Below the pieces are notes generated by a model, which was given only the letters and a program-made list of their open reading frames with translations, was not told the DNA's origin and did not search any database. DNA of 44,257 bases, taken from contig JAOAIA010000001.1 of NCBI GenBank assembly GCA_026414955.1, positions 1 to 44,257 on the forward strand, read 5' to 3'. Position numbers and translations under genes: made by a program. The stretch is from Candidatus Bipolaricaulota bacterium (GTDB lineage Bacteria; Bipolaricaulota; Bipolaricaulia; RBG-16-55-9; DRXL01). Position 1 is the first letter of the stretch. Every line of letters starts with the position of its first letter. Below, in pieces: positions 4,933 to 42,548 of the stretch.

Positions 4933-4937
4933 AGGGT

Positions 4938-10649: not shown

Positions 10650-10651
10650 AC

Positions 10652-11605: not shown

Positions 11606-12212
11606 AAGCCTCCCCCGCGAAGTGCTCTAAAATATTCGTAAGCTGCGAGATCTCGTGAAGGCGGCGCGCCCGCTGCTGGATAGAGATAGGCAGATGCTCA
11701 CGAAGCCAGAGCCAGCCCCGCTCTGTCGCTGATGTGGGAAACTCTAGCTCCAGGGCGTCATAGAGGTCAGGCAGGATCTCCTTGAAGCGCCGCCGCGCCT
11801 CGCCCTCAGCAATGTCCTCACGCACGACGATCCAGTGGAGAGCGATCTCGCCCACGGCGCGATGCAGATTCCAGCGCGCCAGCTCCCCATGACACGCCAG
11901 CTCGATCTTGCGCGCCAGCGCCTGCACCGGCCCAGTAAGAGTGCTTCGCTCTTCCTCACGAGCTTGGTGACGCCCGCGCAGCACCAAGTCTATAATCACG
12001 TAGTAGACGCTCAGACCCCCAATGACTAAAAAGACCATCCAGACCAAGCCGAAGGGCAGGCTCTCTAGGCGCAGCTTCCACAGCCATAGCTCGTACACAA
12101 TATAGCGCAAAAACTTCTCGCGCAGCACCTCACCGTAGAGGAGCGTCAGCGCTATCGCGAGAGCTAAAAGCGCAAGCCCGATCCAGAACCATCGCTGCTT
12201 TAAGATTCTCAT
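11556..12212 (-). CDS. membrane protein of unknown function (3 TM plus cytoplasmic helical domain)
   Basis: MRILKQRWFWIGLALLALAIALTLLYG... It makes a 4-nt overlap with the upstream gene and a 50-nt overlap with the moxR start. Confidence 0.5.
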   Translation of the reverse strand: MRILKQRWFWIGLALLALAIALTLLYGEVLREKFLRYIVYELWLWKLRLESLPFGLVWMVFLVIGGLSVYYVIIDLVLRGRHQAREEERSTLTGPVQALARKIELACHGELARWNLHRAVGEIALHWIVVREDIAEGEARRRFKEILPDLYDALELEFPTSATERGWLWLREHLPISIQQRARRLHEISQLTNILEHFAGEAYERRRDHRGERTEDLR

Positions 12213-13111
12213 GCGGGATGGGGCACCTCAAGAGGCCCTCTCTTGTCTCCGTAGAGGCGCGCGATCTCCTCTAAGAGTTGAATCGCTTCGCGTTCTTGCT
12301 CCGGCGTGGGGCGTGCGGGGCTGTAGCGCGCCCACTCGAAGAGCCGCGACAGCCGGATAATATGCCCTTCGAGCACCCCGATCTGTGCCAGCCTGCTCTC
12401 GAACTCCCGCGCGGTCATGGCGCGCGAAATTTCTAGATGAAATCGCTCGCTCACGAGATGGCACATCTCGCGGTAGCATCGCAGGATCGTCTCGTGCACC
12501 GGCGCGCCATAGCGCAGCTCTTGGGCGTATTGTTTAGAGAGAGCGGCAAGCTCTTCGGCAGCAGTCGGTTGGGCGCGCGCCCGCCATAAACGCCATACTA
12601 TGAAGATCGTCACCCCCAGTGCAAGCAGAGCTAGGAGCACGAAGAGAAATATACCCCACGGGGGGACGTGCACTTGTTCTAGCGTAGGGAAGGGCTGAGT
12701 CGGCTCCTCAGGGAGAACGCCCGTTCCTGGAGGAGCACCCTCTGGCTCTGTGAAGAAGGGCCGGTCGCGCCAGCGCATCAGAATCAATAAGATCGCAGCG
12801 AACCAAACCGCTGCGGGGATGGCGCGCTTGAGGGCCTCCCACAGGCTCCTCGGCCACAAGATGACCGAGATGAGAGAGATCACTACCAAAGTTCCCAGAA
12901 AGACGATCAGGACTTGTTCCCAAAACGACGAGAGATTCTGCTCTGGCGGCTGAGGGCGCGACAGCACCCTCGATGACCCTTCTGAAGATTCCGGCGGCGG
13001 GCCGTAGCGCGTTCCGACAAACGAAACCCGCGACAGCCCCGCGGCCAACAGCACCAGCGCGAGCACAGCAACAACGGGAATCACCAAGCGCCATTTGGTG
13101 AACATAATCAT
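12209..13111 (-). CDS. DUF4129-like membrane protein
   Basis: TM segments are followed by a C-terminal TAREFESRLAQ...LSRLFEWARYSPARPT pattern that I associate with DUF4129, which often occurs next to MoxR/DUF58. An SD CAGGAG precedes ATG 13111. Confidence 0.6.
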   Translation of the reverse strand: MIMFTKWRLVIPVVAVLALVLLAAGLSRVSFVGTRYGPPPESSEGSSRVLSRPQPPEQNLSSFWEQVLIVFLGTLVVISLISVILWPRSLWEALKRAIPAAVWFAAILLILMRWRDRPFFTEPEGAPPGTGVLPEEPTQPFPTLEQVHVPPWGIFLFVLLALLALGVTIFIVWRLWRARAQPTAAEELAALSKQYAQELRYGAPVHETILRCYREMCHLVSERFHLEISRAMTAREFESRLAQIGVLEGHIIRLSRLFEWARYSPARPTPEQEREAIQLLEEIARLYGDKRGPLEVPHPA

Positions 13112-19188: not shown

Positions 19189-19264
19189 TGGTGCCGAGGG
19201 GCGGACTCGAACCGCCGACACCAGGATTTTCAGTCCTGTGCTCTACCAACTGAGCTACCTCGGC
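19189..19264 (-). tRNA. tRNA-Phe (GAA), CCA encoded
   Basis: The reverse complement is GCCGAGGTAGCTCAGTTGGTAGAGCACAGGACTGAAAATCCTGGTGTCGGCGGTTCGAGTCCGCCCCTCGGCACCA, which folds as a perfect cloverleaf. Confidence 0.95.
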
Positions 19265-19284
19265 AAGCTTCGCTTGACGTTCAT

Positions 19285-19309
19285 CTTTGCCGGCTGCAAG
19301 CCGGCAAAG
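19285..19309 (-). repeat. perfect 11-bp hairpin in the tRNA-Asp/tRNA-Phe spacer
   Basis: CTTTGCCGGCT-gca-AGCCGGCAAAG. A second small hairpin, CCAGAC-gaa-GTCTGG (19319-19333), abuts the tRNA-Asp 3' end. Confidence 0.6.
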
Positions 19310-19333
19310 GCGAACAGTCCAGACGAAGTCTGG

Positions 19334-19410
19334 TGGCGGGGATGACGGGATTTGAACCCGCGATCTCTGCCTTGACAGGGCAGCGTGTTAGGCCACTACA
19401 CCACACCCCC
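19334..19410 (-). tRNA. tRNA-Asp (GUC), CCA encoded
   Basis: The reverse complement is GGGGGTGTGGTGTAGTGGCCTAACACGCTGCCCTGTCAAGGCAGAGATCGCGGGTTCAAATCCCGTCATCCCCGCCA, with anticodon loop CTGTCAA. Confidence 0.9.
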
Positions 19411-23923: not shown

Positions 23924-23950
23924 ATGAACTTGTCCTGTGTTTGTGTTAGA

Positions 23951-23981
23951 GTTTGACTTGGCAGAACAGTCAAACTATAAT
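23951..23981 (+). promoter_or_regulatory. promoter plus inverted-repeat operator of the antitoxin/ParE-RelE module
   Basis: TTGACT (23953-23958), a 17-nt spacer, then TATAAT (23976-23981). A perfect inverted repeat GTTTGACT (23951-58)/AGTCAAAC (23968-75) spans the -35 box and the spacer. Confidence 0.7.
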
Positions 23982-24023
23982 CAGCGTTGTGCAGGGCTTA
24001 ACGAGCGAAAGGAGTGTCGGCAA

Positions 24024-24227
24024 ATGCCTGAAACGGTTTTGAATGAAGCACAGACCAAGAACCTACTGCGGCAAGTTCTTGTCGAATTACTTAAAAAGCG
24101 GAGATCAGAATTTCACGAGCTGGTTATTGAAGCAATGGAGGAAGTGGCGTTAGCAAGGGCTATCCGTGCAGGACGAAAGAACGAATTTGTAAGTGAAGAC
24201 GAGATTCGCGCTGCTTTGGAAGCGTAG
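24024..24227 (+). CDS. antitoxin partnered with a RelE/ParE-family toxin
   Basis: The 67-aa product is MPETVLNEAQTKNLLRQVLVELLKKRRSEFHELVIEAMEEVALARAIRAGRKNEFVSEDEIRAALEA. AAGGAG precedes the ATG. Its size, position and ...EDxALxxAIxxGxK...V pattern are typical of this antitoxin class. Confidence 0.65.
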   Translation: MPETVLNEAQTKNLLRQVLVELLKKRRSEFHELVIEAMEEVALARAIRAGRKNEFVSEDEIRAALEA

Positions 24228-24495
24228 CAGGCAAGTTGTTTATGAAGCCACTTTTCTTCGTGACTTAAAAGGCATTCGTAGCAAGAAGGTTCGTCGCCAC
24301 TTGAAGCGAATCATTGATAAGGTCAAAAGGGTTTCAGAACTATCTGACATACCGGGCTTAACGAAACTTCATGGCTATGAGACGTTCTAGCGGATTCGCG
24401 TTGGAGATTATCGGATAGGCGTCGAGATCGTCAAGGGCACGGTCATCTTTGTTCGATTCCTGCATCGGAAAGATATCTATCGTTACTTTCCGTAA
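24193..24495 (+). pseudogene. RelE/ParE-family toxin interrupted by an in-frame TAG
   Basis: The frame reads ...[83 protein letters not shown]. The TAG at 24388-24390 splits the conserved core (RIRVGDYRI...HRKDIY). There is no ATG near the expected start. Confidence 0.75.
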
Positions 24496-24527
24496 ATGTT
24501 GCTCCTAGCGAGAGGAGAGCGTGCCTT

Positions 24528-24752
24528 ATGGTGCGCACGCAGATTAGCTTGACGGAAGAGGAGTATAGGGCTGCTAAGAGAGAAGCTCGCAGGCTTGGTA
24601 TCTCGTTGGCCGAGCTGCTTTGTCGCTCGCTGCGATCCCTGCTTTCCGTGGACGAATCCAAACCCTGGATGCGGTACGCCGGGATGATCGAAACAGGCGA
24701 TAAGACTTCAAGCCAGCGGATCGACGAGGTCGTGTATGGTCAGAAAGATTAG
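24528..24752 (+). CDS. ribbon-helix-helix antitoxin (VapB-like), orphan
   Basis: MVRTQISLTEEEYRAAKREARRLGISLAELLCRSLRSLL...KPWMRYAGMIETGDKTSSQRIDEVVYGQKD. An SD GAGAGGAGAG is present. No intact toxin follows. Confidence 0.7.
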   Translation: MVRTQISLTEEEYRAAKREARRLGISLAELLCRSLRSLLSVDESKPWMRYAGMIETGDKTSSQRIDEVVYGQKD

Positions 24753-24774
24753 ACTAACTTCCATCTTGGACTGA
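24736..24774 (+). pseudogene. possible 12-codon stub of a PIN (VapC) toxin
   Basis: The ATG overlaps the antitoxin end by 17 nt and encodes MVRKIRLTSILD*. This resembles a PIN N-terminus up to the first catalytic Asp (..LLDTNV..) and then stops; nothing PIN-like follows. Confidence 0.3.
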
Positions 24775-24827
24775 CCGGGGTCCCCTTGGTCATTCATGAG
24801 TTTTAGCATCTTGTGAGCTTTAACTTT

Positions 24828-24854
24828 CACAACAAATCTCCCAGATCCCCGCAC
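24828..24854. repeat. direct-repeat copy of the rtcA 3' end (displaced copy)
   Basis: CACAACAAATCTCCCAGATCCCCGCAC matches CACAACGAATCTCCCAGATTCCCGCGC at 25480-25506 in 24 of 27 positions. On the minus strand it reads AGIWEICCES*, compared with the rtcA end AGIWEIRCE*. Confidence 0.7.
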
Positions 24855-24898
24855 AAGATATATGCTGTTGGGTGAACAGGTAGAACGATTTGTATATA

Positions 24899-25209
24899 AT
24901 GGATTTCAAAGCACAGCCTTGGAGAAGGAATTTCTTGAGCAGAATCGCGCAAATTCAGAACCTTGTCCGCAACGGCCTATACTACTTAACTGAGCACGCT
25001 GACAACGAAGCCGCTGCAGACGGCTTCGATGTTACGATATAGAGCAAGGTATTCTGACGGGCAAGATTCGCAAAACGTGGCCCAAGGAAGGCAAGTATGA
25101 AGTGGTGGGGGTGGCGTTAGACGGGCGTCGTATCGGGATTGTTTGTCGCATCACTCAGACAGGTAAAGTGCGTGTGATCACGGTTTACGAAGATAAGCCA
25201 AAGCGATGA
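24899..25209 (+). pseudogene. DUF4258-family toxin gene with a frameshift
   Basis: Frame 1 reads MDFKAQPWRRNFLSRIAQIQNLVRNGLYYLTEHADNEAAADGFDVTI* (stop at 25040-42). The shifted frame continues DIEQGILTGKIRKTWPKEGKYEVVGVALDGRRIGIVCRITQTGKVRVITVYEDKPKR* (to 25209). A single missing base near 25034 would restore ...DVYDIEQGIL... Confidence 0.65.
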
Positions 25210-25220
25210 AGGAGGGAACT

Positions 25221-25460
25221 ATGAGCTTTTGGGAAGGCGAGACGTGCGAATACTGTAGCGGGCCGATTGTGGAGAAGCGCGTGACGTTGCATCGCAAGGT
25301 GCGAGGGCAATATGTCTTGATTGAGAATGTGCCTGCCGGAGTCTGTAAGGAATGCGGCACACGCTACTATGCGGCGAACGTCCTGAAGACGATAGAAGAG
25401 AGCCTACGCGGACGTCGCCAAGCGAAGCGTAAAGTGCTTGTATCCGTGTATTCGTTATAG
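25221..25460 (+). CDS. YgiT-type zinc-finger protein (MqsA N-terminal-domain-like antitoxin)
   Basis: MSFWEGETCEYCSGPIVEKRVTLHRKVRGQYVLIENVPAGVCKECGTRYYAANVLKTIE has two CxxC pairs. AAGGAGGG precedes ATG 25221. Confidence 0.75.
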   Translation: MSFWEGETCEYCSGPIVEKRVTLHRKVRGQYVLIENVPAGVCKECGTRYYAANVLKTIEESLRGRRQAKRKVLVSVYSL

Positions 25461-25474
25461 AATCGCGCCTCCGA

Positions 25475-26512
25475 TTACTCACAACGAATCTCCCAGATTC
25501 CCGCGCGCTCAGTTACTATAAATCGCTTGCCCGTGAGCTGCTCCGCGACCCACATATTGGTCTTGATATGATCCGTCAGCTCGGCACAGAAGAATCTTCC
25601 CCCAAAGAGCGCCAAGAAGGGGATGATCTGATCAGCCATGTGACGGTCGAGCGTCGCACCGCTGCGTAGCTCAGAGATTAACGCCGCCGCAGCTTGTTCA
25701 CCGACTCTCTCGGCAGACACGCCCCGCTCCCCTAGCGCGTCCCCTCCCAAGATGGTCTTCTCGCAGTCCGCCCAGAGCACCACGGCCGAACCGGGAGAGA
25801 GCGTCTCGGCATAGCGCGTCTCGATCCCGATAGCGATCCCAGAAAACTCTCGGCTCAACAGTCTGTGAGCAGCTTCCGCCTGACGCTCGGCGACTTTGCT
25901 CTTCTGTAGATGATGCGAGGCGATTGAAAGCCCGCGAATCTCTCGAAGTTGGCCTTGCTCTGGGAAATCGAACGCTTGGGTAATCTGCGCCGGGCCGAAG
26001 CGCGCGCGCACCCGCGCCCCACCCTTGGGATAAAACCCTTCACGCTCAATCTCTAAAGAAGCTGGGAACCCCCAACGCCCTAACAGAGCGAAATTGACGT
26101 GTTCCAACGCAGCTATCGGCGACGCCCACTGGCCGTAAGTGCCCCCGCCCGCGATCTCGACCGTGACCGAGCGAGCAGCGCACGCCAGCGCGATCTGAAT
26201 GGGCTGAAGCGCCAACGCGACGGAACCCGCCGTCTCAATCTGAATTTTTAGAGAATCTGTCTGGATCGGGCCGGGATGAAACTCGATCTCGCGCGAGCCG
26301 ATCTGCGCGCCCTCCAGACGAGCTTGACAGAGCTGCGCGGCAGCACGAAGACCCGCCAGATGCTGCGCTTGCAAGCCGGGATTGGGCCGCCCCTGCCGAA
26401 TATTTATCACTCGTACAGATTTCCGCAGCGCAATTGCCAAACCCAGACCAACCCGCAAGACCGAGCCGCCTCCGCTAGCCCCATCAAGCACAAGCACCCC
26501 TGCACTTGCCAT
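25475..26512 (-). CDS. rtcA: RNA 3'-terminal phosphate cyclase
   Basis: LVLDGASGGGSVLRVGLGLAIALRKSVRVINIRQGRPNPGLQAQHL, TAGSVALALQ, GFYPKGGARV and HMADQIIPFLAL follow the RtcA pattern as I recall it from E. coli RtcA. Confidence 0.85.
   Translation of the reverse strand: MASAGVLVLDGASGGGSVLRVGLGLAIALRKSVRVINIRQGRPNPGLQAQHLAGLRAAAQLCQARLEGAQIGSREIEFHPGPIQTDSLKIQIETAGSVALALQPIQIALACAARSVTVEIAGGGTYGQWASPIAALEHVNFALLGRWGFPASLEIEREGFYPKGGARVRARFGPAQITQAFDFPEQGQLREIRGLSIASHHLQKSKVAERQAEAAHRLLSREFSGIAIGIETRYAETLSPGSAVVLWADCEKTILGGDALGERGVSAERVGEQAAAALISELRSGATLDRHMADQIIPFLALFGGRFFCAELTDHIKTNMWVAEQLTGKRFIVTERAGIWEIRCE
25480..25506. repeat. direct-repeat copy at the functional rtcA 3' end
   Basis: See the feature at 24828..24854. 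The two copies lie 652 bp apart and bracket the DUF4258/zinc-finger cassette. Confidence 0.7.
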
Positions 26513-26571
26513 ACTTCCCTCTCTGTGATATTGTGTATCCTACCCTGGAGAATACCGAATTGTCGAGTTTT

Positions 26572-27894
26572 ATGCACAGCATACGACTGCGAGGCCTGTA
26601 CGCCACAGCGTTAGCAGCCCTGCTGCGCGAACACCACTGGCGGATCGTGCAGCCTCATGAGGAGCTTCAGCCCTATACCGACCCAGAGGACTGCTTCGCC
26701 CCCTTTGACGCGGAAGTCAAGGATCGCGAGGATCGTCAGGGCGTCATTGTCGTTGGGGAGGCAGGTTCTGTCCATGCTTTCAAAGAGCTGCTCTTTGCCG
26801 AGCTGCCGGACGTCATCGGCGTGCTGGCGCCGACGGAGCTGGGAGCGATCTATCTGGGGGTTGTGCACAAGCAACGCGCGTGGGGCTACGAAATAGACCT
26901 GGGAGGTCTCACGGGCTTCCTCCCTCGGCCGGAGCTGGAGCGGCCCTTGAAGAAGGGTGAGGCCGTGCGTGTCCAAGTCAAAGAGATCGCGCTCTCCCAC
27001 CCCATCGTGACGACCCACCTCAGCCTTGCCGGGCAGCTCGCGGTGCTCTCGCAAGAGCAGGGTGTGGGTATTAGCAAAGAGATCACTGACCCTGATGAGC
27101 GCGAGCGGCTCTTGAGTCTGGGAAGAAGATGCTGCACCAACGGCTGGGGAGTGATCTGGCGCACCAGCGCCTATCGTCAAGACGAGCGCGCACTCCAGCA
27201 AGAGATCAAGCACTTGCAGCAGAAGCTCCCCGCCCTCGACAGCCATCCCGACGAGGGCATCCCCGGCAAGCTGCTCGCCGGTCAGCAAGCCCTCATCGTC
27301 GAATTCCCCGGCGGCAGCAAAGAGACGCTCGATCGCTGGCGCGCACGCTTGATCCCAACAGAACCGGGATATCATCGTCAGATGGTAGGGGCAGGTTCTG
27401 AACCTGCCCCTACCACGGGGAACGCAGGGGATCGCGTGCGCATCGAGCACGTCAAAGCGCAGAGCGATCTCAGTATCGTTATGACCGGTCGGGTTATCGC
27501 AGCGAGCCCGGAACAGATCACGGTGCGCCGCGAGATCAAGGGCTTAGGGGTCTACGACGGGCTGAATATCCCCAAAGAACCCGGCGACTATGCCGTGACG
27601 GTATTCTGTCACGGAGCCTGGCACTACGAGACGCGCTACTACGCCCGCGACGGGCAGCTCAAGGGCGTCTATATCAATATCAACACGCCGATAGAGATCT
27701 ATGCGGATCGCGTGCGCTATATTGATTTAGAGATTGACGTGGTGCAGCGCCCCGGTGAGCCGGCCCAGATCGTTGATGAGCACGATCTCCAGCGTATTGT
27801 GAGCTTTGTGAGTCCCCGACTCCTCGAGCAAGCACGCGCCGTCGCTGCTGAGTGCGCACAATCACTGAATGCGCGCACTCGTGGCAGACCGTGA
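26572..27894 (+). CDS. FAU-1-like protein: RNase E/G-related N-terminal region fused to a C-terminal DUF402 domain
   Basis: The sequence starts MHSIRLRGLYATALAALLREHHWRIVQP. It has an S1-like segment GAIYLGVVHKQRAWGYEIDLGGLTGFLP and an RNase E/G-like segment LAGQLAVLSQEQGVGISKEITDPDERERLLSLGRR...GVIWRTSA. The C-terminal YININTPIEIYADRVRYIDLEIDVV is the DUF402 signature. The track start at 26506 would overlap rtcA divergently. Confidence 0.65.
   Translation: MHSIRLRGLYATALAALLREHHWRIVQPHEELQPYTDPEDCFAPFDAEVKDREDRQGVIVVGEAGSVHAFKELLFAELPDVIGVLAPTELGAIYLGVVHKQRAWGYEIDLGGLTGFLPRPELERPLKKGEAVRVQVKEIALSHPIVTTHLSLAGQLAVLSQEQGVGISKEITDPDERERLLSLGRRCCTNGWGVIWRTSAYRQDERALQQEIKHLQQKLPALDSHPDEGIPGKLLAGQQALIVEFPGGSKETLDRWRARLIPTEPGYHRQMVGAGSEPAPTTGNAGDRVRIEHVKAQSDLSIVMTGRVIAASPEQITVRREIKGLGVYDGLNIPKEPGDYAVTVFCHGAWHYETRYYARDGQLKGVYININTPIEIYADRVRYIDLEIDVVQRPGEPAQIVDEHDLQRIVSFVSPRLLEQARAVAAECAQSLNARTRGRP
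27384..27414. repeat. perfect 15-bp-arm palindrome (GAGxxPAPT-type element), in-frame in the FAU-1-like gene
   Basis: GGTAGGGGCAGGTTC-t-GAACCTGCCCCTACC. It encodes VGAGSEPAPT between the RNase-like and DUF402 parts. Confidence 0.8.
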
Positions 27895-27953: not shown

Positions 27954-28652
27954 GTGAGCACCAAGCGTTCTCAGAAGCCAACCAAGGCTGAGAAGAAGAC
28001 GTCATCGAAGTTGCCGTGGTATCGTCAGCCGATGCTCTTAGGCATTGCTGTTGGCGGAGTCGTCGTCGTGGGGTTGATAGTCCTGACGGTGTTGCTCTCG
28101 CGCCCTGGGGAGAGTTTTCAGGTGACGCGCCCGGTGGGGCAAGATTTTCTGCCGGAGATGGGCGACCCCAACGCGCCTGTGACAGTATATGAATATTCAG
28201 ACTATCAATGCCCGTTCTGCGCGCAGTTTGCCTTACGGGATAAGCCCAAGCTCGAAGAGATGCACATTAAGACGGGCAATGTGCGGTTTATCTACCGAAA
28301 CTTTATTGTGAAAGGGGAAAAGTCTGTCCTGGCTGCTGAAGCGGCATTTTGTGCTGCTGAACAGGGGGGATTTTGGGCCTACCATGATATGCTCTTTGCG
28401 AAACATGAGCGGGGCGTGGACTTCAATAAGTCCAATCTGATCGGATTTGCACGTGAGCTTGGCTTGGACGAAAAAGGGTTTACTGAGTGTCTGGACTCAA
28501 AGAGATATCGCAGTAAAGTTGAGGAGGAGCATCGCGAGGGAGAGCGATACGGGGTCACCGGGACTCCCTCCTTTGTGGTCAACGGCAGGCTCGTCAGAGG
28601 GGCTGATTATTTCAGCCTGTTAGAGACTATTAAGCAAGAATTAGGGCGGTAG
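27954..28652 (+). CDS. membrane-anchored DsbA-family thiol:disulfide oxidoreductase
   Basis: A TM anchor is followed by YSDYQCPFCAQF (the CPFC active site) and GVTGTPSFVVNG (the cis-Pro region). The GTG start is preceded by GGAGGAG. Confidence 0.85.
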   Translation: MSTKRSQKPTKAEKKTSSKLPWYRQPMLLGIAVGGVVVVGLIVLTVLLSRPGESFQVTRPVGQDFLPEMGDPNAPVTVYEYSDYQCPFCAQFALRDKPKLEEMHIKTGNVRFIYRNFIVKGEKSVLAAEAAFCAAEQGGFWAYHDMLFAKHERGVDFNKSNLIGFARELGLDEKGFTECLDSKRYRSKVEEEHREGERYGVTGTPSFVVNGRLVRGADYFSLLETIKQELGR

Positions 28653-28656
28653 CGCG

Positions 28657-29121
28657 ATGTGGCGCTTGTGGGGTATTCTGGTATTGGCGATGATCGGCCT
28701 CGGTGTAGCGGGGTATTTGACGTATGAGAAGTTCGCCGGAGGGGGACTGATCTGCTGGGGCAGCAGCCAAGAGTGCGAGATCGTGCAAAACAGCCCGTAT
28801 AGCCAGATCGGCCCCATCCCCGTTGCCGTGCTGGGCTTGCTCGGGTATCTGATCTTTCTCGTCATGACGGTCTTGCAGATACGCGCTCCGTCGCTGGAGA
28901 GGCGTCGGACGCTCGCGGGGCTGAACTTCGGCTTGGCGCTGGGAGCGTTTCTCTACTCAGGCTATCTCACATATCTTGAGTTGTTCGTGATCTATGCGAT
29001 CTGTACGTGGTGCGTCATCTCGGCGATCTTGGTGACGTTTATCTTGGTGTTGGCGACGTGGGAGCTGGTCGCGCTCACCAAAGAGCCCCAAGCAGTTGTC
29101 GAACCCGTGGCCGACGACTGA
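28657..29121 (+). CDS. vitamin K epoxide reductase (VKOR) family protein
   Basis: The product has 4 TM segments, loop cysteines ICWGSSQEC, and the active-site CTWC in the last TM. It sits immediately after the DsbA-like gene. Confidence 0.8.
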   Translation: MWRLWGILVLAMIGLGVAGYLTYEKFAGGGLICWGSSQECEIVQNSPYSQIGPIPVAVLGLLGYLIFLVMTVLQIRAPSLERRRTLAGLNFGLALGAFLYSGYLTYLELFVIYAICTWCVISAILVTFILVLATWELVALTKEPQAVVEPVADD

Positions 29122-29183: not shown

Positions 29184-30914
29184 ATGCGGCGCAGTGCTGT
29201 TGCCGGGCTTCTGACGGTGGCCCTGGCGACCGTTCCCGTGCTCGCCCAGCCCCAGATCGAGAGCGTCGAGCTGGGGTTCAATGGGCGTTTTCTCCCCGGC
29301 GCTCTGACGCCCCTGAGTGTCACGCTGCGCCACAGCGGGCCGGCTCAAAATTTCACCCTCGAAGTCTCCCAGGAAGTCCGCGACTTCACCGAGCGCAGCC
29401 TTCGTGAGCGTCTGCGGCTGCCAATCAGCCTGGGGTTGGGAGCGCGCAAGACGCTCTCGTTCGATTTTCCCATCAAAAGCGTGAGCACCCCGGTGCGCAT
29501 CGCGCTCCTGGCTGGAGAGCGAGAGATCGCGCTCACGGAGATAGACGTGCGCGAGCGTTGGAGCGAGAATGCGCTCGTAGTGGGGCTTGCTGTCCAGCCC
29601 ATGCCCGCGATAGAGCCGATAGAACCCGAAAGGCTTCCCCGGCGCTGGACAAGCTATGACGGCGTAGCACGGATTCTGTGGGGGCGGCTCGACCCCGCAC
29701 GCTTGACGGCAGAACAACGCACCGCGATGCTGGGCTGGCTGGTGCGCGGCGGCGAGCTTATTATCTTATCGGGGGAGAACTGGCACGAGCAGTTCAGTCC
29801 TGGGGAAGCGTCCCCGGAGACAGCCCAGGGCTGGTGGGCACATCTGCTGCCCATCACCAACGGGCGCATCGTGCGCCGTGCACTCAATGGCCAAGAGGTC
29901 TCCTGGGTGGAGGGCGCCCTTCGCGCGGGAGCGCGCGTCGTCACCAGCGATGCGGGACGCCCCTTGATCTGGGAGCGCCCTCTAGGACATGGGAGAGTTC
30001 TACTGGTGGCCCTCGCCACGCTCCCCGAAACTATACGTCTCCCAGAACGGAACAGCGATAAAGTTTTCGAGCAAGATCAGCTCATTGTGAAAGCCCTCGG
30101 TGCGCTTGTTGTCCCGTTTCCGTCGCGGGAGGTCATCGGCGGGCTGCTTCTAGCTTTTATTGTTGGCGTTGGGCTTGGCGGGATACTCGCTAGCAGGCGC
30201 ACCGTGTCCCTATGGATCGCCCTCGCATCCGGGGTGCTCTCGCTGGCTATCTTTCAGTATCAACACAGCGCGGAATTCTCTCACGAAAAGTATTCTGTGC
30301 ATCTTGGGGTCGTGCGGATCTGGGCGGGGGAACCGATAGCGTGGGAACAAGATTGGTACGGGGTTTTTTCTCGCCGGTCAGGTGAGGGGATTCTCCCCAT
30401 CTCTGCCGACTGCGTGAGATCGGTCGCGTGGCGGGCGGCCATGCGCCCCACGGGCACTGTCACTGTTGAGGTGGCCTCCCCACGGATGCGCGTGCTGCGC
30501 TTTCACAGCGAGCGCGACTCTGTGCGCTTCTTCGCTGCTGAACGCATGACGGACCCTCCCGTGCAGTTCACGGTGAACCGAGCCGTCAGTCCCCCGCAGA
30601 TACACGTGTATAATCGGTCATCGCTGAGCTTGCAGGACGCGGTCGTGCGCATCGGCAACGATTTTTACAAGGTGGGTCCTATCGCCCCCCAGACGGAGCT
30701 GATCCGTCCCCTGAGCGAGATGGGTCGGATCAGCAAGACCGAATGGCTCACTAGTTTACCCGAAGGGCGTCGGCTGCTCTGGCACCAGTGGGGTGCAGAG
30801 AGCGTCGGCCCTACGCTCATTGGATGGTTTGAGGCTGGCTCCGTATGGGCCAAGATGGAGCGAGAAGCCCGAACGGTCGTGCGCTTGGTCACTGTTGACG
30901 GGGGAGCCTTATGA
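29184..30914 (+). CDS. exported/membrane protein of unknown function (signal peptide, two central TM segments)
   Basis: The signal peptide is MRRSAVAGLLTVALATVPVLAQP. The TM segments are GGLLLAFIVGVGLGGILA and LWIALASGVLSLAIFQY. I recognise no family. Confidence 0.6.
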   Translation: MRRSAVAGLLTVALATVPVLAQPQIESVELGFNGRFLPGALTPLSVTLRHSGPAQNFTLEVSQEVRDFTERSLRERLRLPISLGLGARKTLSFDFPIKSVSTPVRIALLAGEREIALTEIDVRERWSENALVVGLAVQPMPAIEPIEPERLPRRWTSYDGVARILWGRLDPARLTAEQRTAMLGWLVRGGELIILSGENWHEQFSPGEASPETAQGWWAHLLPITNGRIVRRALNGQEVSWVEGALRAGARVVTSDAGRPLIWERPLGHGRVLLVALATLPETIRLPERNSDKVFEQDQLIVKALGALVVPFPSREVIGGLLLAFIVGVGLGGILASRRTVSLWIALASGVLSLAIFQYQHSAEFSHEKYSVHLGVVRIWAGEPIAWEQDWYGVFSRRSGEGILPISADCVRSVAWRAAMRPTGTVTVEVASPRMRVLRFHSERDSVRFFAAERMTDPPVQFTVNRAVSPPQIHVYNRSSLSLQDAVVRIGNDFYKVGPIAPQTELIRPLSEMGRISKTEWLTSLPEGRRLLWHQWGAESVGPTLIGWFEAGSVWAKMEREARTVVRLVTVDGGAL

Positions 30915-31588
30915 GATACCTTCGTGAAGCCCTGCCGCGCGTCGAGCTGATCACCCCGACGACATGGTCGGTCTACGTGAGCTATTTGGTTCTCAGTGGG
31001 ATTCCTTTGCTCATGGCCTTGCCGTCGTCGGCGCGCATTGACGTGCTCGTTGAACCACGCCTCAGTATGCTGCCCATCTTCGTCACGGTGATCACCCTCT
31101 TGTTCACGATCTACTCGCTCAACTTCGGGCCGGCCCACGCGAAGCTGAGGCTCTCTCCCCGCGAGACTCAGGTGAGTCTGCTGGCGCACGTCGGCTTCTT
31201 GATGGTGCTCAGTCTCCCGTACTGGACGGTCTTTGAGGGCATGACAGGCTACGCGCTGGGGCGCATGGCGGGAGCCTTGGCGTATCTGACGCTCTACGGC
31301 TCGTGCTGGGCGTTGATCGGCTTGGCCATCGGACTGCGCTGGCCCTCGGAGATCACCCAGTTTAACGTCAAGTATGCTCTGCTCGCCGTCACCATGATCG
31401 GGACGTTCTTCGTGGTGAAGCCGCTCAATCCGTTCTTGGCGCTGTCGCTGTGGTTTGGGGAGGGTCCACTCAAAGAGCAATGGTCGTTTTTGCTCGTATC
31501 GTATGGGGGTTTGGTGCTCGGAGTTTGCTTGTTACTCATGTGGACGTCGGCGCTCCTGAACACGCGCGGAAGAAGAGATATAATGTGA
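30911..31588 (+). CDS. 6-TM integral membrane protein of unknown function
   Basis: The start forms an ATGA overlap with the upstream stop. The sequence is hydrophobic throughout. Confidence 0.6.
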   Translation: MRYLREALPRVELITPTTWSVYVSYLVLSGIPLLMALPSSARIDVLVEPRLSMLPIFVTVITLLFTIYSLNFGPAHAKLRLSPRETQVSLLAHVGFLMVLSLPYWTVFEGMTGYALGRMAGALAYLTLYGSCWALIGLAIGLRWPSEITQFNVKYALLAVTMIGTFFVVKPLNPFLALSLWFGEGPLKEQWSFLLVSYGGLVLGVCLLLMWTSALLNTRGRRDIM

Positions 31589-31607
31589 CAGAAGAAGGAG
31601 GAGCTTT

Positions 31608-33197
31608 ATGGATTCGTTCAAGACAGTGTGCGCGCGGCTGGTGCGGCGCCAACGGTTCCTACACGGTTTGAGCGCCGCTCGGTGGACTCTGATGGCAACG
31701 CTCGCGCTGACAGCGATCACGCTGATACTCCAAGCGTTGAAGATCGTGCCCACTCTCTCCCCTCTGTGGCTGCTGGGCGGGAATCTCGCTCTCGCGAGCG
31801 TGGCGTTCGCATGGGGCTGGCTCAGGCCCGTCAATCTGACGGAGATGCTCTTTCGCGCCGACCGCAACGCCCACACTGAAGAGAAGCTCGTCACACTCTA
31901 TGAGCTTTCCCTGGGGCAGGCTCCCAGAGAGTTCCTCCCGTTGCTCATCTCTCGGCTTGGATCGCTGACGCTCGATCTCTCTACCGCCCTGCCCATCGGA
32001 CGGAGAGAGCGCAAGTTATGGCTCGGGGTGCTCGCCTTGGGCTTCGTATGCGTGGGGATGATCGGCGTCGTCCACGCTGGGGTTTTTGTGTGGGCACCGT
32101 GGGGCACTTCAGAGCAAGCGGTGTCTTCTCAATCGTCCGAGTCGGCCCAGGCGCCGCCACGCGAGATGCGCCTGGCTGACTTGGTGCAGCCCCCACCGCC
32201 GGAACTGGCGCAGAAGCTCGCAGCTCTGAGAGAGCGTTTCGAGCAAGCCCGTGCGGCGTTAGCGCAAAACCCCAACGATCCCCGCGCACGCGCCATCTTG
32301 CAACAACTTCAGGAAGAGATCCGCCAAGAGCAGGATCGTCTGGTGAGTCCGCCCCCGCTTGGCGAAGATCACGCTGCTCCTTCGGGGAAGCCCCGTGATG
32401 ACGCTTCTCTTGTAGAAAACCCCGCAGCCGATGTGCGGTCTCCTGAGAACACTGACTCTGCCTCAAGACAGACCGAGCTTGACAGATTGATGCGGATGTT
32501 GCGCGACATCCAGGGACAAGCGCAAGAGCTTTCACCCGAAGAGCTGCAGAAGCTCTTGGAGCAGCTCCAGCAAGAGAATCCCGATGCGGCATCTATTGCT
32601 CAGCAGGCCTTACAGATGGGCCCGAGCACCCAAGAGTTCAGCGAGAGGCTCGAAGAAGCTCTGAGAAATCTAGGAGCGCGTCGCGATCTCCATCAAGAGC
32701 TGGAGCAATTGCAGCGCGATGTGCAATCGGCACTCTCTCAATCCGAGCAGGCTGAAACAGCTCGCGGCGATGCACCGCCGTCGGGGGACGCGCAGCCGTC
32801 TTCAGAGGGTCCGCCAGACCCTCAGAACGCGAGCACAGAATCGGACTCTGACTCTGCAGAGGGGCCTCGACAAGAGAACGCGCTCTCGCAGCCGTCGGGC
32901 GGGCGCGGCAAGGCCCCCCTCGACCCAGAGGCTGTGAAAGACTTACCCGATCTGTCGCAGTTACGTGAGCACACACGCTCGTTCTCCGTCCCCGGCACAG
33001 ACGAAGAGAACCTCGAGATTCTCTTCGAGATCATCAGCACAGGGTTGCCGCAAAACCCCAATACGCCAGGGCAGCCCACGCCGGTCGAGATTGATTATCG
33101 TAAAGTCGAAGCGTTGATAGACGCGCTGGAGATCCCTAATGAGCTGCGCGACGCTGTGCGCCAGTATTTTCTGAGCTTGGCTAGACCTCTCCCCTAA
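31608..33197 (+). CDS. membrane-anchored acidic coiled-coil/low-complexity protein (possibly DUF4175-like)
   Basis: AAGGAGGAG precedes the ATG. Three N-terminal TM segments are followed by a long E/Q/P/A/D-rich region (LQQLQEEIRQEQDRL, LQKLLEQLQQENPDA). The stop codon lies inside the repeat at 33184. Confidence 0.6.
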   Translation: MDSFKTVCARLVRRQRFLHGLSAARWTLMATLALTAITLILQALKIVPTLSPLWLLGGNLALASVAFAWGWLRPVNLTEMLFRADRNAHTEEKLVTLYELSLGQAPREFLPLLISRLGSLTLDLSTALPIGRRERKLWLGVLALGFVCVGMIGVVHAGVFVWAPWGTSEQAVSSQSSESAQAPPREMRLADLVQPPPPELAQKLAALRERFEQARAALAQNPNDPRARAILQQLQEEIRQEQDRLVSPPPLGEDHAAPSGKPRDDASLVENPAADVRSPENTDSASRQTELDRLMRMLRDIQGQAQELSPEELQKLLEQLQQENPDAASIAQQALQMGPSTQEFSERLEEALRNLGARRDLHQELEQLQRDVQSALSQSEQAETARGDAPPSGDAQPSSEGPPDPQNASTESDSDSAEGPRQENALSQPSGGRGKAPLDPEAVKDLPDLSQLREHTRSFSVPGTDEENLEILFEIISTGLPQNPNTPGQPTPVEIDYRKVEALIDALEIPNELRDAVRQYFLSLARPLP

Positions 33198-33236
33198 CCC
33201 CTCCCCGACGCGGGGAAGGGAGCGAGGGGGGTAGGT
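33184..33236. repeat. family A palindromic element copy (supplies the last codons and TAA of the upstream gene)
   Basis: GACCTCTCCCCTAACCCCTCCCCGACGCGGGGAAGGGAGCGAGGGGGGTAGGTA. Its reverse complement shares 12/12 bases at each terminus (ACCTACCCCCCT, AGGGGAGAGGTC) with the 3430 copy and has the same 53-nt length. Confidence 0.75.
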
Positions 33237-33249
33237 AGAAAGGAGCCAG

Positions 33250-34254
33250 ATGATCACGGAGAAGCAGATCCGCGATCTGCAAGCGAAGTTTCATGCGCTC
33301 ATCGAAGAGATTCGCTCGGTCATCATCGGGCACGACGCAGTCATCCAACAGACGCTGATCGGGCTTTTGTGCGGCGAGCATCTTCTGTTAGAGGGCGTAC
33401 CGGGGCTGGGCAAGACGCTCCTGGTGCGCACGCTGGGGAAGGCGCTCGGCTTAAAATTCTCGCGCATTCAGTTTACCCCGGACTTGATGCCCGCGGACAT
33501 CATCGGGACTCGGATCTTACTTGAAGACGAGACCGGGCGACGCTATTTTGAATTCTCTCGCGGCCCGATCTTCGCGCACTTAGTGCTGGCCGACGAGATC
33601 AACCGTGCTACGCCCAAGACCCAGTCAGCTCTCCTAGAAGCGATGCAGGAGCGCAGCATCACCGTGAGCGGCGAGACATACAAACTCGAAGAGCCGTTCA
33701 TGGTCCTCGCGACCCAAAACCCCATCGAGATGGAGGGGACGTACCCCCTGCCAGAAGCCCAGATTGATAGATTCTTCTTCAAGATTTTGCTCCGCTCCCC
33801 GTCATTAGAACAGCTGGAGCAGATCATTGACCGGCACGGGGCAGGACGGGATGCTGTGGCGATAGAGCAAGTCTTGAGCCGTGAAGAGATTCTCGAAGCA
33901 CAAAAGCTCGTGGCGCGTTGGCCCATCGCCTCGCCGCTGCGACGGTACGCCGCGCGCCTCGTAGACGCCACGCAGCCCGCTTCGCAGAACGCCCCCGAGA
34001 TTGTCAAGCACTACGTCGAGTACGGGGCCAGCCCGCGCGCGGCGCTCGCGCTCGTGCGCGGGGCCAAAGCCCATGCGTTTCTCTCCGGCGAGGTCCACAC
34101 CCGCATCGCGGACATCCAAGCTGTTTTTTACCCCAGCTTGATTCACAGAATTATTCGCAACTTTCGCGGTGAAGCCGAGGGCGTCCCTGTAGAAAAGATC
34201 CTTCAAGAGGTCTTCGATCATGTTCGCCCGGAGTCCGTCATTGAGGCTCGATGA
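33250..34254 (+). CDS. MoxR-family AAA+ ATPase (second paralog)
   Basis: GVPGLGKT, LVLADEINRATPKTQSALLEAMQE and QNPIEMEGTYPLPEAQIDRF are all present. Confidence 0.9.
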   Translation: MITEKQIRDLQAKFHALIEEIRSVIIGHDAVIQQTLIGLLCGEHLLLEGVPGLGKTLLVRTLGKALGLKFSRIQFTPDLMPADIIGTRILLEDETGRRYFEFSRGPIFAHLVLADEINRATPKTQSALLEAMQERSITVSGETYKLEEPFMVLATQNPIEMEGTYPLPEAQIDRFFFKILLRSPSLEQLEQIIDRHGAGRDAVAIEQVLSREEILEAQKLVARWPIASPLRRYAARLVDATQPASQNAPEIVKHYVEYGASPRAALALVRGAKAHAFLSGEVHTRIADIQAVFYPSLIHRIIRNFRGEAEGVPVEKILQEVFDHVRPESVIEAR

Positions 34255-35095
34255 GGCGCTCTTCAAGAAGCTGTCGGCCCTGCAATTGTTAGTGCGCAGG
34301 CGCTTCCAGGGCCAGACCGGCCTGTGGACGACAGCGCGTGCCGGCATGAGCCTCGAATTTGCAGAATATCGCGAATACCACCCGGGGGATGACTTTCGCT
34401 ACGTAGACTGGAACCTCTACGGACGATTGGATCGGCTCTTCGTCAAGGTCTTTCAGCGCGAAGAAGACGTGCCGATCTATCTGCTCATAGACACGAGCCG
34501 CTCGATGGCCGTGGGCGAGAAGCTGACGTATGCAGTGCAGCTTGCTGGAGCTATCGCCTATGTCGGGCTGAAAGAGATGAACCGTGTGGGGGTCTTTCCG
34601 TTCGCGCGCGATGTAGCACAGGGCGTGCCGCCTAAACCTGGCATGGCGCACCTGCACCATATCTTCGATCTCTTGGGAAGATTGGAGCCTTCGGGACAGA
34701 CGGCGCTCACGGAGAGTTTGGAGCGGTTCAGCAAGCGTCCGCTGCGTCAGGGCTTGGCAGTCTTGCTCAGCGATATGCTCGATCCCCAGGGATACGAGCA
34801 CGGTCTCTTCAGCTTGCTCTGGAAGGGATTGGAAATCGTGCTCATTCACATACTCGCCCGTGAAGATATTCACCCACCGGTGCAACGCGCAACACGGCTC
34901 TGCGATAGCGAGGTGGCGCGCGAGTTTTCTGTCGGCGCAGGGGCAGTCGCCCGCTATCGTGAGAATCTTCAGAGATATGGGCGCGCTCTCGAAGCGTTTT
35001 GTCGTGAGCACCAGATCAGATATGCGCAACTCTCGACCGCCCGCTCGCTGGAGCGCGCGCTCCTGGAAGACCTGCGCGGGGTGATCTTTCAGTGA
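34220..35095 (+). CDS. DUF58-family protein (second paralog, no N-terminal TM)
   Basis: GMSLEFAEYREYHPGDDFRYVDWNLYGRLDRLFVKVFQREED...LLIDTSRSM. ATG 34220 overlaps the moxR end by 35 nt. Confidence 0.8.
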   Translation: MFARSPSLRLDEALFKKLSALQLLVRRRFQGQTGLWTTARAGMSLEFAEYREYHPGDDFRYVDWNLYGRLDRLFVKVFQREEDVPIYLLIDTSRSMAVGEKLTYAVQLAGAIAYVGLKEMNRVGVFPFARDVAQGVPPKPGMAHLHHIFDLLGRLEPSGQTALTESLERFSKRPLRQGLAVLLSDMLDPQGYEHGLFSLLWKGLEIVLIHILAREDIHPPVQRATRLCDSEVAREFSVGAGAVARYRENLQRYGRALEAFCREHQIRYAQLSTARSLERALLEDLRGVIFQ

Positions 35096-36801
35096 TCTTT
35101 CTGAACGCCTGGGCGTTTGGGCTGTTGGGCTTAGCTGGCGTGATCGCGACGCTCTATTTCCTACGGCCGCGCGAGGAGCGCCTGACGGTCTCGGCCCTGT
35201 GGCTCTGGCCCCAAGAGCCGGAGCACCCGCGCAGCGCCCTCATGTTCTTATGGACAAAAATTTGGCTCTTATTGGTGCAATTAGCCGCGCTGGCAGCGCT
35301 CGTCTTTGCGGTAGCCGCGCCCACCCTGCCCTCGGCAGTGCTCGGCGGCGGCACCCTTGCTCTGATCATAGACGGCAGCGCGAGTATGCAGACCCGCGAG
35401 CGTGAGCAGACGCGCTACGAGCGCGCGGTTGAGATCGCTCAGGAGATCATCGCGCAACGACGTCCACGCCATCTCACGATCATTCAAGCGCAGCAGAGTC
35501 CTCGCTTGCTCGTCCCCTGGACGGAGGATCGAGATCGGGCTGTCGCTCTCTTGCGAGCCTCCCACCCGACACTCCAGAGCAACGCTCCCGAATCGAGCGT
35601 GCTTCAGCTTGTGCGCAGCCAGGGGGAGCTGGAAAGCTACGACGAGGTCATCTATATCAGCGATCGTCGTCCCGAGGGTGACGTGCTCACGAGCACGGTG
35701 ACGTGGGTGCCCGTGGGCGAGCCAAGAAGCAATTTCGCGATCACAGCGTTTGCCGCACGGTTGCTCCCAGAGAGCGCTCAGGGTGTCGCCCTGTGGGCGC
35801 GCGTCGAGAATTTCTCCTCAGAAGCAGTCGAGGGCACGTTCACGGTCTTTGCAGAAGACATGGAAGTCGCGCGCGACCATCTCCAGCTCGCACCCGGCGA
35901 GTATCGCTCAGTTGAGACGATAGTAGCGCGGAGCATCGGCGGGCGCTTCCGCGCCGTTCTCGATATCGAAGACGATTTCCCCTTCGACAACGCTCGCTAT
36001 GCCGTCATGCCGACGAGGCCGAAGCTGAGGGTCTTATGGCTGGGGGAGCGCAACTTCTTTCTAGAGCGAGCGCTCGCTCTCTTCGCCGATGCTCAGATCA
36101 CCGTGCTCTCAGATGCAGATATCGCCAATACAGAAGACTATGATCTAGTCATCGCTCACAATGCGGAGCTGCCTATCCTGCCCACTGGGCGGCTTTTCTT
36201 CATCAATAGCTCTGTCTCAGCAGTCGTCCGGCTCTCCGAGAGTTCTGGTGCGACAGGAGCACCCCAGTTCCTCCAGCCGGGGCACGCTCTTGTGCAGAAC
36301 CTGCGCCTGGAGCACTTTCAGGCATCACGGGTTCGGAGTGCTGAGTTCGCCCTTCCCGTGCAGACGTTGCTCGTCTTGGATGGTCACCCGATCTTGGCTG
36401 CGCACAGATCGAGTTCGCTGAGCTTGGTCTGGCTCGGAATAGATTTGAGAGCCTCGCCCTTGGTGCTCACGCCAAGCTTCCCTATTCTCGTGCGGAACGT
36501 CACGCGTTGGCTCTTCGCCGACTTGACTCTTCTTGGAGAACGCTTTGTCTCCGAGGAGTTCCCCAATCTGGGCTTTACGGAGCAGGGCGCGATCAACCTT
36601 GACCCACGGGAATCGCAAGAGATCAGAGTCCTTTCTGGTCCCTCTAGCGTGCCGCCTGCGGCTGGCCAAAGCGAACAGTCCAGACACAGCCTAGGCGCAA
36701 GAGGGCAGTCTCTGTGGCACTATGGAGCGTGGCTTGCCTTGGGCTTGCTCGTGCTCGAGTTGCTCTGGCATGACCGAAGGCTTTTGAGGAGATCTCTATG
36801 A
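35092..36801 (+). CDS. BatA-N (double-TM N-terminal) domain protein with a VWA-like MIDAS and a C-terminal TM
   Basis: The N-terminus is VIFLNAWAFGLLGLAGVIATLYFLRPRE...VSALWLW. LALIIDGSASMQT is a DxSxS motif. The start forms a GTGA overlap with the DUF58 stop. Confidence 0.7.
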   Translation: MIFLNAWAFGLLGLAGVIATLYFLRPREERLTVSALWLWPQEPEHPRSALMFLWTKIWLLLVQLAALAALVFAVAAPTLPSAVLGGGTLALIIDGSASMQTREREQTRYERAVEIAQEIIAQRRPRHLTIIQAQQSPRLLVPWTEDRDRAVALLRASHPTLQSNAPESSVLQLVRSQGELESYDEVIYISDRRPEGDVLTSTVTWVPVGEPRSNFAITAFAARLLPESAQGVALWARVENFSSEAVEGTFTVFAEDMEVARDHLQLAPGEYRSVETIVARSIGGRFRAVLDIEDDFPFDNARYAVMPTRPKLRVLWLGERNFFLERALALFADAQITVLSDADIANTEDYDLVIAHNAELPILPTGRLFFINSSVSAVVRLSESSGATGAPQFLQPGHALVQNLRLEHFQASRVRSAEFALPVQTLLVLDGHPILAAHRSSSLSLVWLGIDLRASPLVLTPSFPILVRNVTRWLFADLTLLGERFVSEEFPNLGFTEQGAINLDPRESQEIRVLSGPSSVPPAAGQSEQSRHSLGARGQSLWHYGAWLALGLLVLELLWHDRRLLRRSL

Positions 36802-42528: not shown

Positions 42529-42548
42529 GGCAACTGTGAACTCGCTCG

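Follow-up and report, generated by a model that had tools for sequence, protein, structure and literature searches.

The window analysed here, by which we mean the whole stretch of 44,257 nucleotides of contig JAOAIA010000001.1 (assembly GCA_026414955.1, Candidatus Bipolaricaulota bacterium), carries two adjacent genes on opposite strands, one encoding the RNA cyclase RtcA and the other a predicted orthologue of RNase W, an RNA-processing nuclease of archaea also known as FAU-1. An earlier note on this DNA, made from its letters alone, had placed the start of rtcA at 26512 and that of the FAU-1-like gene at 26572 on the opposite strand, 59 bp apart. Both open reading frames (ORFs) and the latter start were confirmed, and the features of the pair are as follows.

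25475..26512, minus strand: rtcA, 345 residues, ORF confirmed at these coordinates
26513..26571: divergent spacer common to rtcA and the RNase W gene, 59 bp
26529..26542: conserved core TATTGTGTATCCTA of the spacer, 14 nt, with two predicted back-to-back -10 elements
26572..27894, plus strand: predicted RNase W/FAU-1 orthologue, 440 residues
26839..27285, plus strand: S1 (residues 90-139) and RNase E-like 5'-sensor (residues 151-238) module of RNase W, assigned by Pfam and Foldseek
27430..27852, plus strand: predicted DUF402-fold catalytic domain of RNase W (residues 287-427), assigned by Pfam and residue mapping

The longest ORF of the RNase W gene opens at a TTG at 26506, a start that would overlap rtcA and was rejected, as the TTG and GTG codons upstream of 26572 are not kept in frame in relatives. 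The product of the ATG at 26572 begins with MHSIRLRG, and close homologues are 430-442 residues long and share the N-terminus MxSIRLRG (consensus MYSIRLRG); because both starts and lengths match, the ATG was retained as the start codon.

A Pfam scan of 32 window proteins found no rtcB, archease or rtcR, in agreement with the earlier reading that this is not the canonical Rtc repair operon, and no RtcB domain was present in the Pfam-annotated neighbours of related loci. The window likewise holds no sigma-54 activator and no CARF protein, its sole AAA+ protein being a MoxR located 7 kb away in a different operon. The stretch itself is clearly bacterial throughout, and a mis-binned archaeal contig is ruled out by its gene context (carAB, an aspartyl-tRNA synthetase with a GAD domain, LolA-like, MMPL, TetR, DsbA and VKOR proteins, and a MoxR-DUF58-BatA-VWA operon) and by an even G+C content, which is 0.60 across the rtcA-RNase W pair and the same in the rest of the window. 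For both proteins, the homologues with a named source are from Candidatus Bipolaricaulota / Acetothermia, and the window sequence occurs in DNA runs of hot-spring metagenomes.

An RNase W orthologue with an intact active site

Judged by sequence and predicted fold, the 440-residue protein is a genuine full-length RNase W/FAU-1 orthologue. It was aligned by phmmer to the entries named 'Probable ribonuclease FAU-1' in the PDB (8rza and 8wo8) with an E-value of 2e-64, over residues 3-269 and 287-427. Pfam detected DUF402 at residues 339-406 (E-value 2e-16), RNase_E_G at residues 151-238 (44.7 bits, covering profile positions 1-89 of 270 only), and S1 at residues 90-139 (18 bits, below the cut-off of 22). 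An AlphaFold model obtained from 30 homologues (pLDDT 91.1, pTM 0.88) was matched by Foldseek to the P. furiosus structures 8wo8/8rza with a TM-score of 0.86 (467-479 aligned columns) and to the Sulfolobus structure 8rzf with a TM-score of 0.72, the other matches being S1/5'-sensor fragments of RNase E (4oxp, 2c4r) and stand-alone DUF402 phosphatases. The three-part architecture proposed from the translation, with a FAU-1-like N-terminus, S1 and RNase E/G-like segments, and a C-terminal DUF402, is supported by Pfam, phmmer and Foldseek, and both profile and structural matches were found for the N-terminal part.

The RNase E/G-like segment is indeed present, but it corresponds to the S1/5'-sensor module only. 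Given the restriction of the RNase_E_G match to the start of the profile and the failure of TIGR00757 (46 bits against a cut-off of 326), the protein has no RNase E/G catalytic domain, and the RNase E and RNase G equivalog models reached just 13-24 bits against cut-offs of 594-1400. In archaea, the nuclease site lies in the DUF402 domain and the RNase E-like part acts as a 5'-phosphate sensor and regulator, as described by Vayssieres et al. (2024, PMC11602121), who gave FAU-1 its new name RNase W.

We mapped the 18 functional residues defined by these authors (numbering of the P. furiosus protein, Pf) onto the window protein and found 15 of them to be identical. All seven residues of the active site are kept (Pf H326, K328, D364, N404, D420, D424 and D437 correspond to H293, K295, D329, N369, D385, D389 and D402) and are invariant in 22/22 bacterial homologues. 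Identity extends to the arginines of the 5'-phosphate switch (Pf R10 and R12, here R5 and R7) and to two arginines of the 5'-sensor (Pf R181 and R201, here R177 and R197). The basic patch of the sensor is partly altered, since Pf K170 is replaced by G166, a position occupied by Gly or Ala in 21/22 bacterial sequences, and Pf R173 by K169, which is a conservative change. Finally, the regulatory Pf H271 is Tyr267 in the window protein, and this position is Tyr or Phe in 16/22 bacterial sequences as against His in 31/31 archaeal ones, while Pf H272 is kept as H268. The replacements of His271 by Tyr/Phe and of Lys170 by Gly/Ala in bacteria point to an altered gating of the nuclease.

The earlier note had regarded the full FAU-1 architecture as characteristic of Archaea, which is also the view of the literature, where RNase W is called archaea-specific (PMC11602121, PMC12641178) and was presented in 2024 as the first nuclease of ribosome biogenesis specific to archaea (PMC11602121). 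A 2025 survey of bacterial ribosome-biogenesis factors reported fau-1 in 0% of bacterial genomes outside the CPR; in the same survey the Bipolaricaulota, represented by few genomes, had unusually few bacterial ribosome-biogenesis factors, which may be relevant here. The annotation itself is already in databases, the homologue of Acetithermum autotrophicum being named 'RNA-binding protein FAU-1' in UniRef.

The adjacent cyclase is of archaeal type

The gene at 25475..26512 is, on profile, alignment and residue evidence, a bona fide RtcA of archaeal type with its catalytic histidine kept. Its product matches the Pfam families RTC (PF01137, E-value 3e-62) and RTC_insert (PF05189, E-value 8e-24) and scores 323.5 bits with the TIGR03399 equivalog model, above the cut-off of 250, which bears out the identity first assigned to it. 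The HxKTN motif, here LTDHIKTN, contains His315, which we take to be the adenylylated (nucleotidyl-accepting) active-site residue. This histidine aligns with those of EITNHLKTN in P. horikoshii RtcA (4o89) and PSCHLLTN in E. coli RtcA (1qmh). The protein can be aligned over its full length with solved RtcA structures; it scores 232 bits with the P. horikoshii enzyme versus 134-136 bits with that of E. coli. With the Rcl1p model TIGR03400 it reaches 75 bits, under the cut-off of that model, and its matches to Rcl1 chains in the PDB are weak.

The divergent pair is conserved and ancestral in the bacterial clade

We scanned GTDB species representatives (one genome per species) with an alignment of bacterial RNase W homologues and analysed the best 80 of 196 matching loci, 18 of them bacterial and 62 archaeal. 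These loci were searched with the window RtcA and its neighbours, and then with the RtcAs of Bathyarchaeia, P. horikoshii, E. coli and Helarchaeota. Seventeen bacterial loci, those with enough upstream sequence, could be evaluated. Taxon labels are those of the metagenome-assembled genome records, and some of them read Fraserbacteria or Thermotogae despite 65-74% identity and the same synteny.

A divergent rtcA lies beside RNase W in 13/17 evaluable bacterial species representatives, so that the adjacency noticed in the window is conserved in related genomes. The 13 pairs include three deep branches in which RNase W is 39-41% and RtcA 56-57% identical to the window proteins, and the same arrangement was found in three metagenome loci (L004, L005 and L008). 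The gene beyond rtcA differs among bacterial loci (carA, Opp permease genes, a CMD/redoxin cluster, and others). Within the close clade, the junction between the two start codons stays at 50-61 bp while the outer neighbour of rtcA changes.

Three loci devoid of rtcA retain traces of it. Two of them (L013 and L003) have kept the core of the spacer together with a scar, a few bases long, of the 5' end of rtcA just upstream of RNase W. In a third (L022, at about 5890-5990), some 15 codons of rtcA, MIEIDGAIGGGSVLR, are followed by unrelated sequence and a stop codon. Moreover, the tips without rtcA are scattered in the RNase W tree. Taken together, these scars and the scattered tips show the pair to be ancestral for the bacterial clade, with rtcA lost several times.

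In one bacterial lineage a different gene stands beside RNase W. An archaeal-type pseudouridine synthase Pus10 (Pus10_THUMP_arc) is directly upstream of it on the same strand at positions 4812-5915 of locus L093, and also in L094. The L093 contig is bacterial-looking (cytochrome c, CopCD, FabD/FabG/ACP), and its RNase W is 43% identical to that of the window. Considered as a wider pattern, this neighbourhood was discarded, being confined to the L093/L094 lineage among the loci examined.

The same two genes are paired in Bathyarchaeia

Among the 62 archaeal loci, rtcA is present in eight, always immediately upstream of RNase W and on the same strand. These eight comprise all seven loci labelled Bathyarchaeia or Bathyarchaeota and one labelled Nitrososphaerota, and they form a single RNase W clade with a bootstrap support of 98%. 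The arrangement is found in a complete Bathyarchaeota chromosome (CP070835, locus L090), where rtcA precedes RNase W with a gap of 22 bp and the flanking genes are unrelated, and in a metagenome contig (L095) with a gap of 13 bp. Overall, rtcA is directly upstream of RNase W in 10/10 Bathyarchaeia-type loci, with operon-like gaps of 13-50 bp, and the two genes, which are probably co-transcribed, are the only ones common to all ten, the next family being present in 7/10. The second search, with RtcAs of Bathyarchaeia, P. horikoshii, E. coli and Helarchaeota, revealed no rtcA in loci that had been scored as lacking it.

Because it recurs in 13/17 bacterial species and, in the other orientation, in all the Bathyarchaeia-type loci, the adjacency of rtcA and RNase W appears to be more than chance, and its presence in both groups suggests that the two enzymes work on the same RNA ends.

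A conserved spacer with predicted overlapping promoters

In 11 species, the spacer between the two genes shows a mean pairwise identity of 0.73, as compared with 0.59 for the third positions of the 30 initial codons of each gene, and 13 of the 14 positions of the core TATTGTGTATCCTA are invariant, which argues for selection on the spacer. Promoters were called by consensus matching only. The plus-strand match consists of TTGCCA (26506), 17 nt, and TATTGT (ending at 26534), preceded by TG; that on the minus strand consists of TCGACA (26566), 18 nt, and TAGGAT (ending at 26537). The predicted -10 hexamers thus abut inside the core, and each -35 element lies beside the start codon of the other gene. 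Where rtcA has been lost, parts of this layout persist: L013 retains the TATCCT part and a one-base variant of TATTGT upstream of FAU-1, and L003 retains the core except for a single G-to-T substitution. A related element, GCTATCCT, precedes the RNase W start by about 12 nt in the deep bacterial clade.

This pattern fits overlapping divergent promoters. Since both predicted -10 elements fall within the invariant core, expression of rtcA and RNase W is probably either joint or competitive. The shared regulation that had been deduced from the 59-bp distance depends on this conserved spacer and its consensus promoter matches.

A probable old acquisition of archaeal type

In neighbour-joining trees, whose support is modest, the RNase W sequences of bacteria form one clade (61%) that spans the phylum and is not sister to that of Bathyarchaeia. 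The RtcA tree contains a bacterial clade (86%) and a Bathyarchaeia clade (100%), with support of 27-52% at its deep nodes, and the two are separated by the RtcAs of Armatimonadota, Verrucomicrobiae, Helarchaeota, Theionarchaea, Omnitrophica and P. horikoshii. The identity of the window RtcA to its counterparts in Bathyarchaeia is 32-40%, versus 41-51% to those of Armatimonadota, Verrucomicrobiae, Helarchaeota and Theionarchaea. With the RtcA clades far apart and the RNase W clades not sisters, we see no sign of the pair having moved as a unit between the two groups, and a joint transfer from Bathyarchaeia is not supported.

The simplest history is an ancient import of archaeal-type genes into the ancestor of Bipolaricaulota, the direction of which we infer from the broad presence of the family in archaea. 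The horizontal acquisition suspected in the earlier note is consistent with the archaeal type of the family, but it is not a recent event in this genome: the monophyly of the bacterial clade, the synteny and the uniform G+C content indicate an old feature of the entire Bipolaricaulota lineage, transmitted vertically since.

A possible RNA end-processing couple

The reported activities of the two families meet at the same kind of RNA end. FAU-1 makes endonucleolytic cuts at UA, and its products resist alkaline phosphatase, a resistance that Ikeda et al. took to indicate ends with a 2',3'-cyclic phosphate and a 5'-OH (Ikeda et al., 2017, PMC5627344). In the crystal structure of RNase W, a 3'-phosphate occupies the active site; the activity persists without Mg, the isolated DUF402 domain degraded RNA, and cleavage of a terminal 3'-phosphate and resolution of a cyclic 3'-phosphate are listed as plausible activities (PMC11602121). 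RtcA cyclises 3'-phosphate and 2'-phosphate ends and so feeds RtcB, which joins 2',3'-cyclic phosphate ends (PMC10630183). Because the reported ends of FAU-1 products match the chemistry of RtcA, RNase W and RtcA would meet at the same RNA end. A cellular context is provided by H. volcanii, where RNase W has been implicated in late maturation of 16S ribosomal RNA (rRNA) (PMC11602121), the endoribonuclease activity and the role in rRNA maturation being known for archaeal members only (PMC5627344, PMC11602121).

On this basis, a sequence of events can be proposed. The N-terminal arginine switch, the S1 domain and the RNase-E-like sensor of RNase W would bind 5'-monophosphorylated single-stranded RNA and gate the nuclease site of the DUF402 fold. 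RNase W would then cut its substrate, which by analogy with archaea may be precursor or defective rRNA, leaving a 5'-OH and a 2',3'-cyclic phosphate, and the latter would decay or be resolved to a 3'- or 2'-phosphate. RtcA, with ATP, would convert the 3'-phosphate (or 2'-phosphate) end back to a 2',3'-cyclic phosphate, and the re-cyclised end might either be ligatable by an RtcB-type ligase encoded elsewhere or be blocked against 3' exonucleases and tailing.

The case for a coupling comes from the independence of the Bathyarchaeia arrangement, the variable outer boundary of rtcA in bacteria, and the matching chemistry. On balance, we slightly favour the view that RtcA and RNase W are functionally coupled in some way, and place less confidence in the particular order of nuclease followed by cyclase. 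That the two form a cross-domain RNA end-processing module for rRNA maturation or quality control, shared by Bipolaricaulota and Bathyarchaeia, is a possible extension that we put forward tentatively. The earlier note had suggested an undescribed couple in which a nuclease makes ends and a cyclase modifies them; comparative genomics and the published end chemistry strengthen this suggestion, in which co-regulation, a common substrate, the sequence of the two reactions and the involvement of rRNA are inferred.

Several observations weigh against such a coupling. First, rtcA is absent from 4/17 evaluable bacterial loci, from which it follows that RNase W needs no adjacent rtcA, and it has been deleted at least three times with RNase W retained. 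Second, on the side away from rtcA, the order RNase W-DsbA-VKOR is kept in 19/22 bacterial loci, at least as well as the pairing with rtcA, so bacterial synteny taken alone is weak evidence and could reflect slow rearrangement. Third, no rtcA was found within 6 kb in 54/62 archaeal loci (Thermococci, Thorarchaeota/Promethearchaeota, Jordarchaeia, methanogens, haloarchaea). Fourth, the trees are weak, and a joint transfer from an unsampled archaeon in which the pair was linked is possible. Lastly, the chemistry of the ends left by RNase W is suggested but not firmly proven, and Vayssieres et al. assayed several substrates for phosphatase activity and detected none (PMC11602121).

Most of these points would be accommodated if the two genes were functionally unrelated and had stayed together through a shared history, for instance on one archaeal DNA fragment, within a slowly rearranging block. 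Under such neutral synteny, the maintenance of RNase W-DsbA-VKOR with no obvious functional logic, the repeated loss of rtcA but not of RNase W, and the lack of linkage in most archaeal lineages would all be expected, and the archaeal type of both genes is compatible with a single joint import. We nevertheless regard this explanation as rather unlikely. It does not account for the recurrence of the pair in Bathyarchaeia, in the other orientation and with RtcAs that have no specific relationship to those of the bacteria, where these two genes are moreover the only unit common to all the loci; nor for the repeated change of the outer neighbour of bacterial rtcA next to a junction that stays at 50-61 bp; nor for the match between the end chemistries of the two enzymes.

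The two enzymes might instead oppose each other, the DUF402 site resolving 2',3'-cyclic phosphates or removing terminal 3'-phosphates in vivo instead of cutting RNA, and RtcA reversing this, so that the pair would set the state of the 3' end of a target RNA. Both activities are among those considered plausible by Vayssieres et al., who saw a 3'-phosphate bound in the site, stand-alone DUF402 proteins are phosphohydrolases, and opposing activities would be well served by divergent promoters that may exclude each other. The negative phosphatase assays and the degradation of RNA by the isolated domain, however, together with the endonucleolytic cuts at UA seen by Ikeda et al., argue for a nuclease, and the co-directional and probably co-transcribed genes of Bathyarchaeia fit cooperation better; an antagonism of this kind is improbable in our view.

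Finally, that a recently acquired mobile or defence island specific to the window genome carries the pair is largely refuted and very improbable, for although toxin-antitoxin-like ORFs with a dip in G+C content (0.52, at 23937-25460) adjoin rtcA and RNase W is otherwise archaeal, the G+C content of the pair equals that of the rest of the window, its chromosomal position and downstream genes are the same across the phylum, the toxin-antitoxin cassettes vary among genomes and sit outside the pair between carA and rtcA, and the scanned window proteins include no integrase or transposase.

Relation to known systems

The closest known relatives of the window nuclease are the RNase W/FAU-1 enzymes of P. 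furiosus, S. acidocaldarius and H. volcanii (8rza, 8wo8, 8rzf; PMC11602121, PMC5627344), with which it shares its architecture and fold (TM-score 0.86), the seven active-site residues, the arginines equivalent to R10/R12 and R181/R201, and the lack of the RNase E catalytic domain. It differs from them in being 25-30 residues shorter, in belonging to a bacterium although the family has been defined as archaea-specific, and in its pairing with rtcA, unreported for the studied archaeal enzymes. With RNase E/G it shares the S1 and 5'-monophosphate-sensor module (2c4r, 4oxp; RNase_E_G positions 1-89), but it has neither the DNase-I-like catalytic domain nor the Zn-link and tetramer scaffold of these enzymes, catalysis being assigned to DUF402.

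As in the rtcBA-rtcR operon of E. coli and Salmonella, an RtcA with its active-site histidine is linked to an enzyme for 2',3'-cyclic phosphate/5'-OH ends; here, however, the partner is predicted to be a nuclease, RNase W, where the operon has the ligase RtcB, the window encodes neither RtcR nor any sigma-54 activator, and the genes are divergent instead of forming an operon. The Bathyarchaeia pair (CP070835, L090) unites the same two families side by side, but co-directionally where the window pair is divergent, and neither the RNase W nor the RtcA lineages are sisters. A further likeness, to be taken as a lead only, is with Rcl1, an RTC-fold protein that belongs to the small-subunit processome of eukaryotes and is associated with the processing of small-subunit rRNA. 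Rcl1 has no cyclase activity and acts inside a large eukaryotic particle.

A literature search found no paper linking FAU-1/RNase W or DUF402 with RtcA or phosphate cyclase, and none of the papers listed named FAU-1 together with Acetothermia or Bipolaricaulota. Both protein families are already known; what is new is, first, a phylum-wide bacterial RNase W clade with clade-specific regulatory substitutions, as read from the alignments, and second, the conserved RtcA-RNase W pairing in two domains of life, of which we found no prior description in the literature. A bacterial clade of this breadth, with an intact active site, changes the archaea-only picture of the family. The cellular role of RtcA beyond feeding RtcB has been unclear, and a partner whose product ends match its substrates offers a concrete hypothesis. 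If the cross-domain module proposed above exists, it would provide RtcA with a defined substrate in the cell and RNase W with a partner, and a bacterial phylum would run part of its rRNA processing with archaeal-type machinery.

Other features of the window

The region of lower G+C content between carA and rtcA (0.52, window 23937-25460) contains the following small toxin-antitoxin-like ORFs.

23937-24227: RelB-like antitoxin, followed by a 65-residue ORF overlapping its end
24528-24752: 74-residue ORF, no family match
25206-25460: YgiT/MqsA-type zinc-finger protein

In one relative (L005) their place is taken by RelB-like and ParE genes, and other relatives have none; these ORFs look like variable cassettes.

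On the other side of the pair, 3' of RNase W, lie genes for a DsbA-like thioredoxin and then VKOR (27954-29121). The DsbA start overlaps the RNase W stop in some gene calls, which suggests co-transcription of these two genes; no functional reason for the RNase W-DsbA-VKOR order is apparent. Further downstream, a cluster at 29184-39383 that is syntenic across the phylum encodes three conserved proteins without family match (576, 225 and 529 residues), followed by a MoxR AAA+ ATPase and DUF58, BatA-like and VWA proteins. The minus strand carries a second DUF58 gene, paired with DUF4129, at 9300-13111.

A group I intron (Rfam RF00028, 77 bits, 42597-42851) splits the anticodon loop of a tRNA gene on the minus strand (window 42548-42875), for which ARAGORN made no call. 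The exons read ...ACCGGCTGT / intron / TAACCGGT... and fit a class I tRNA with anticodon GUU (Asn), and the acceptor stem and CCA end are visible. The window also contains tRNA-Phe(GAA) and tRNA-Asp(GUC) at 19189-19410 on the minus strand, just downstream of carB, and tRNA-Arg(GCG) at 1361-1437 on the plus strand, near its start.

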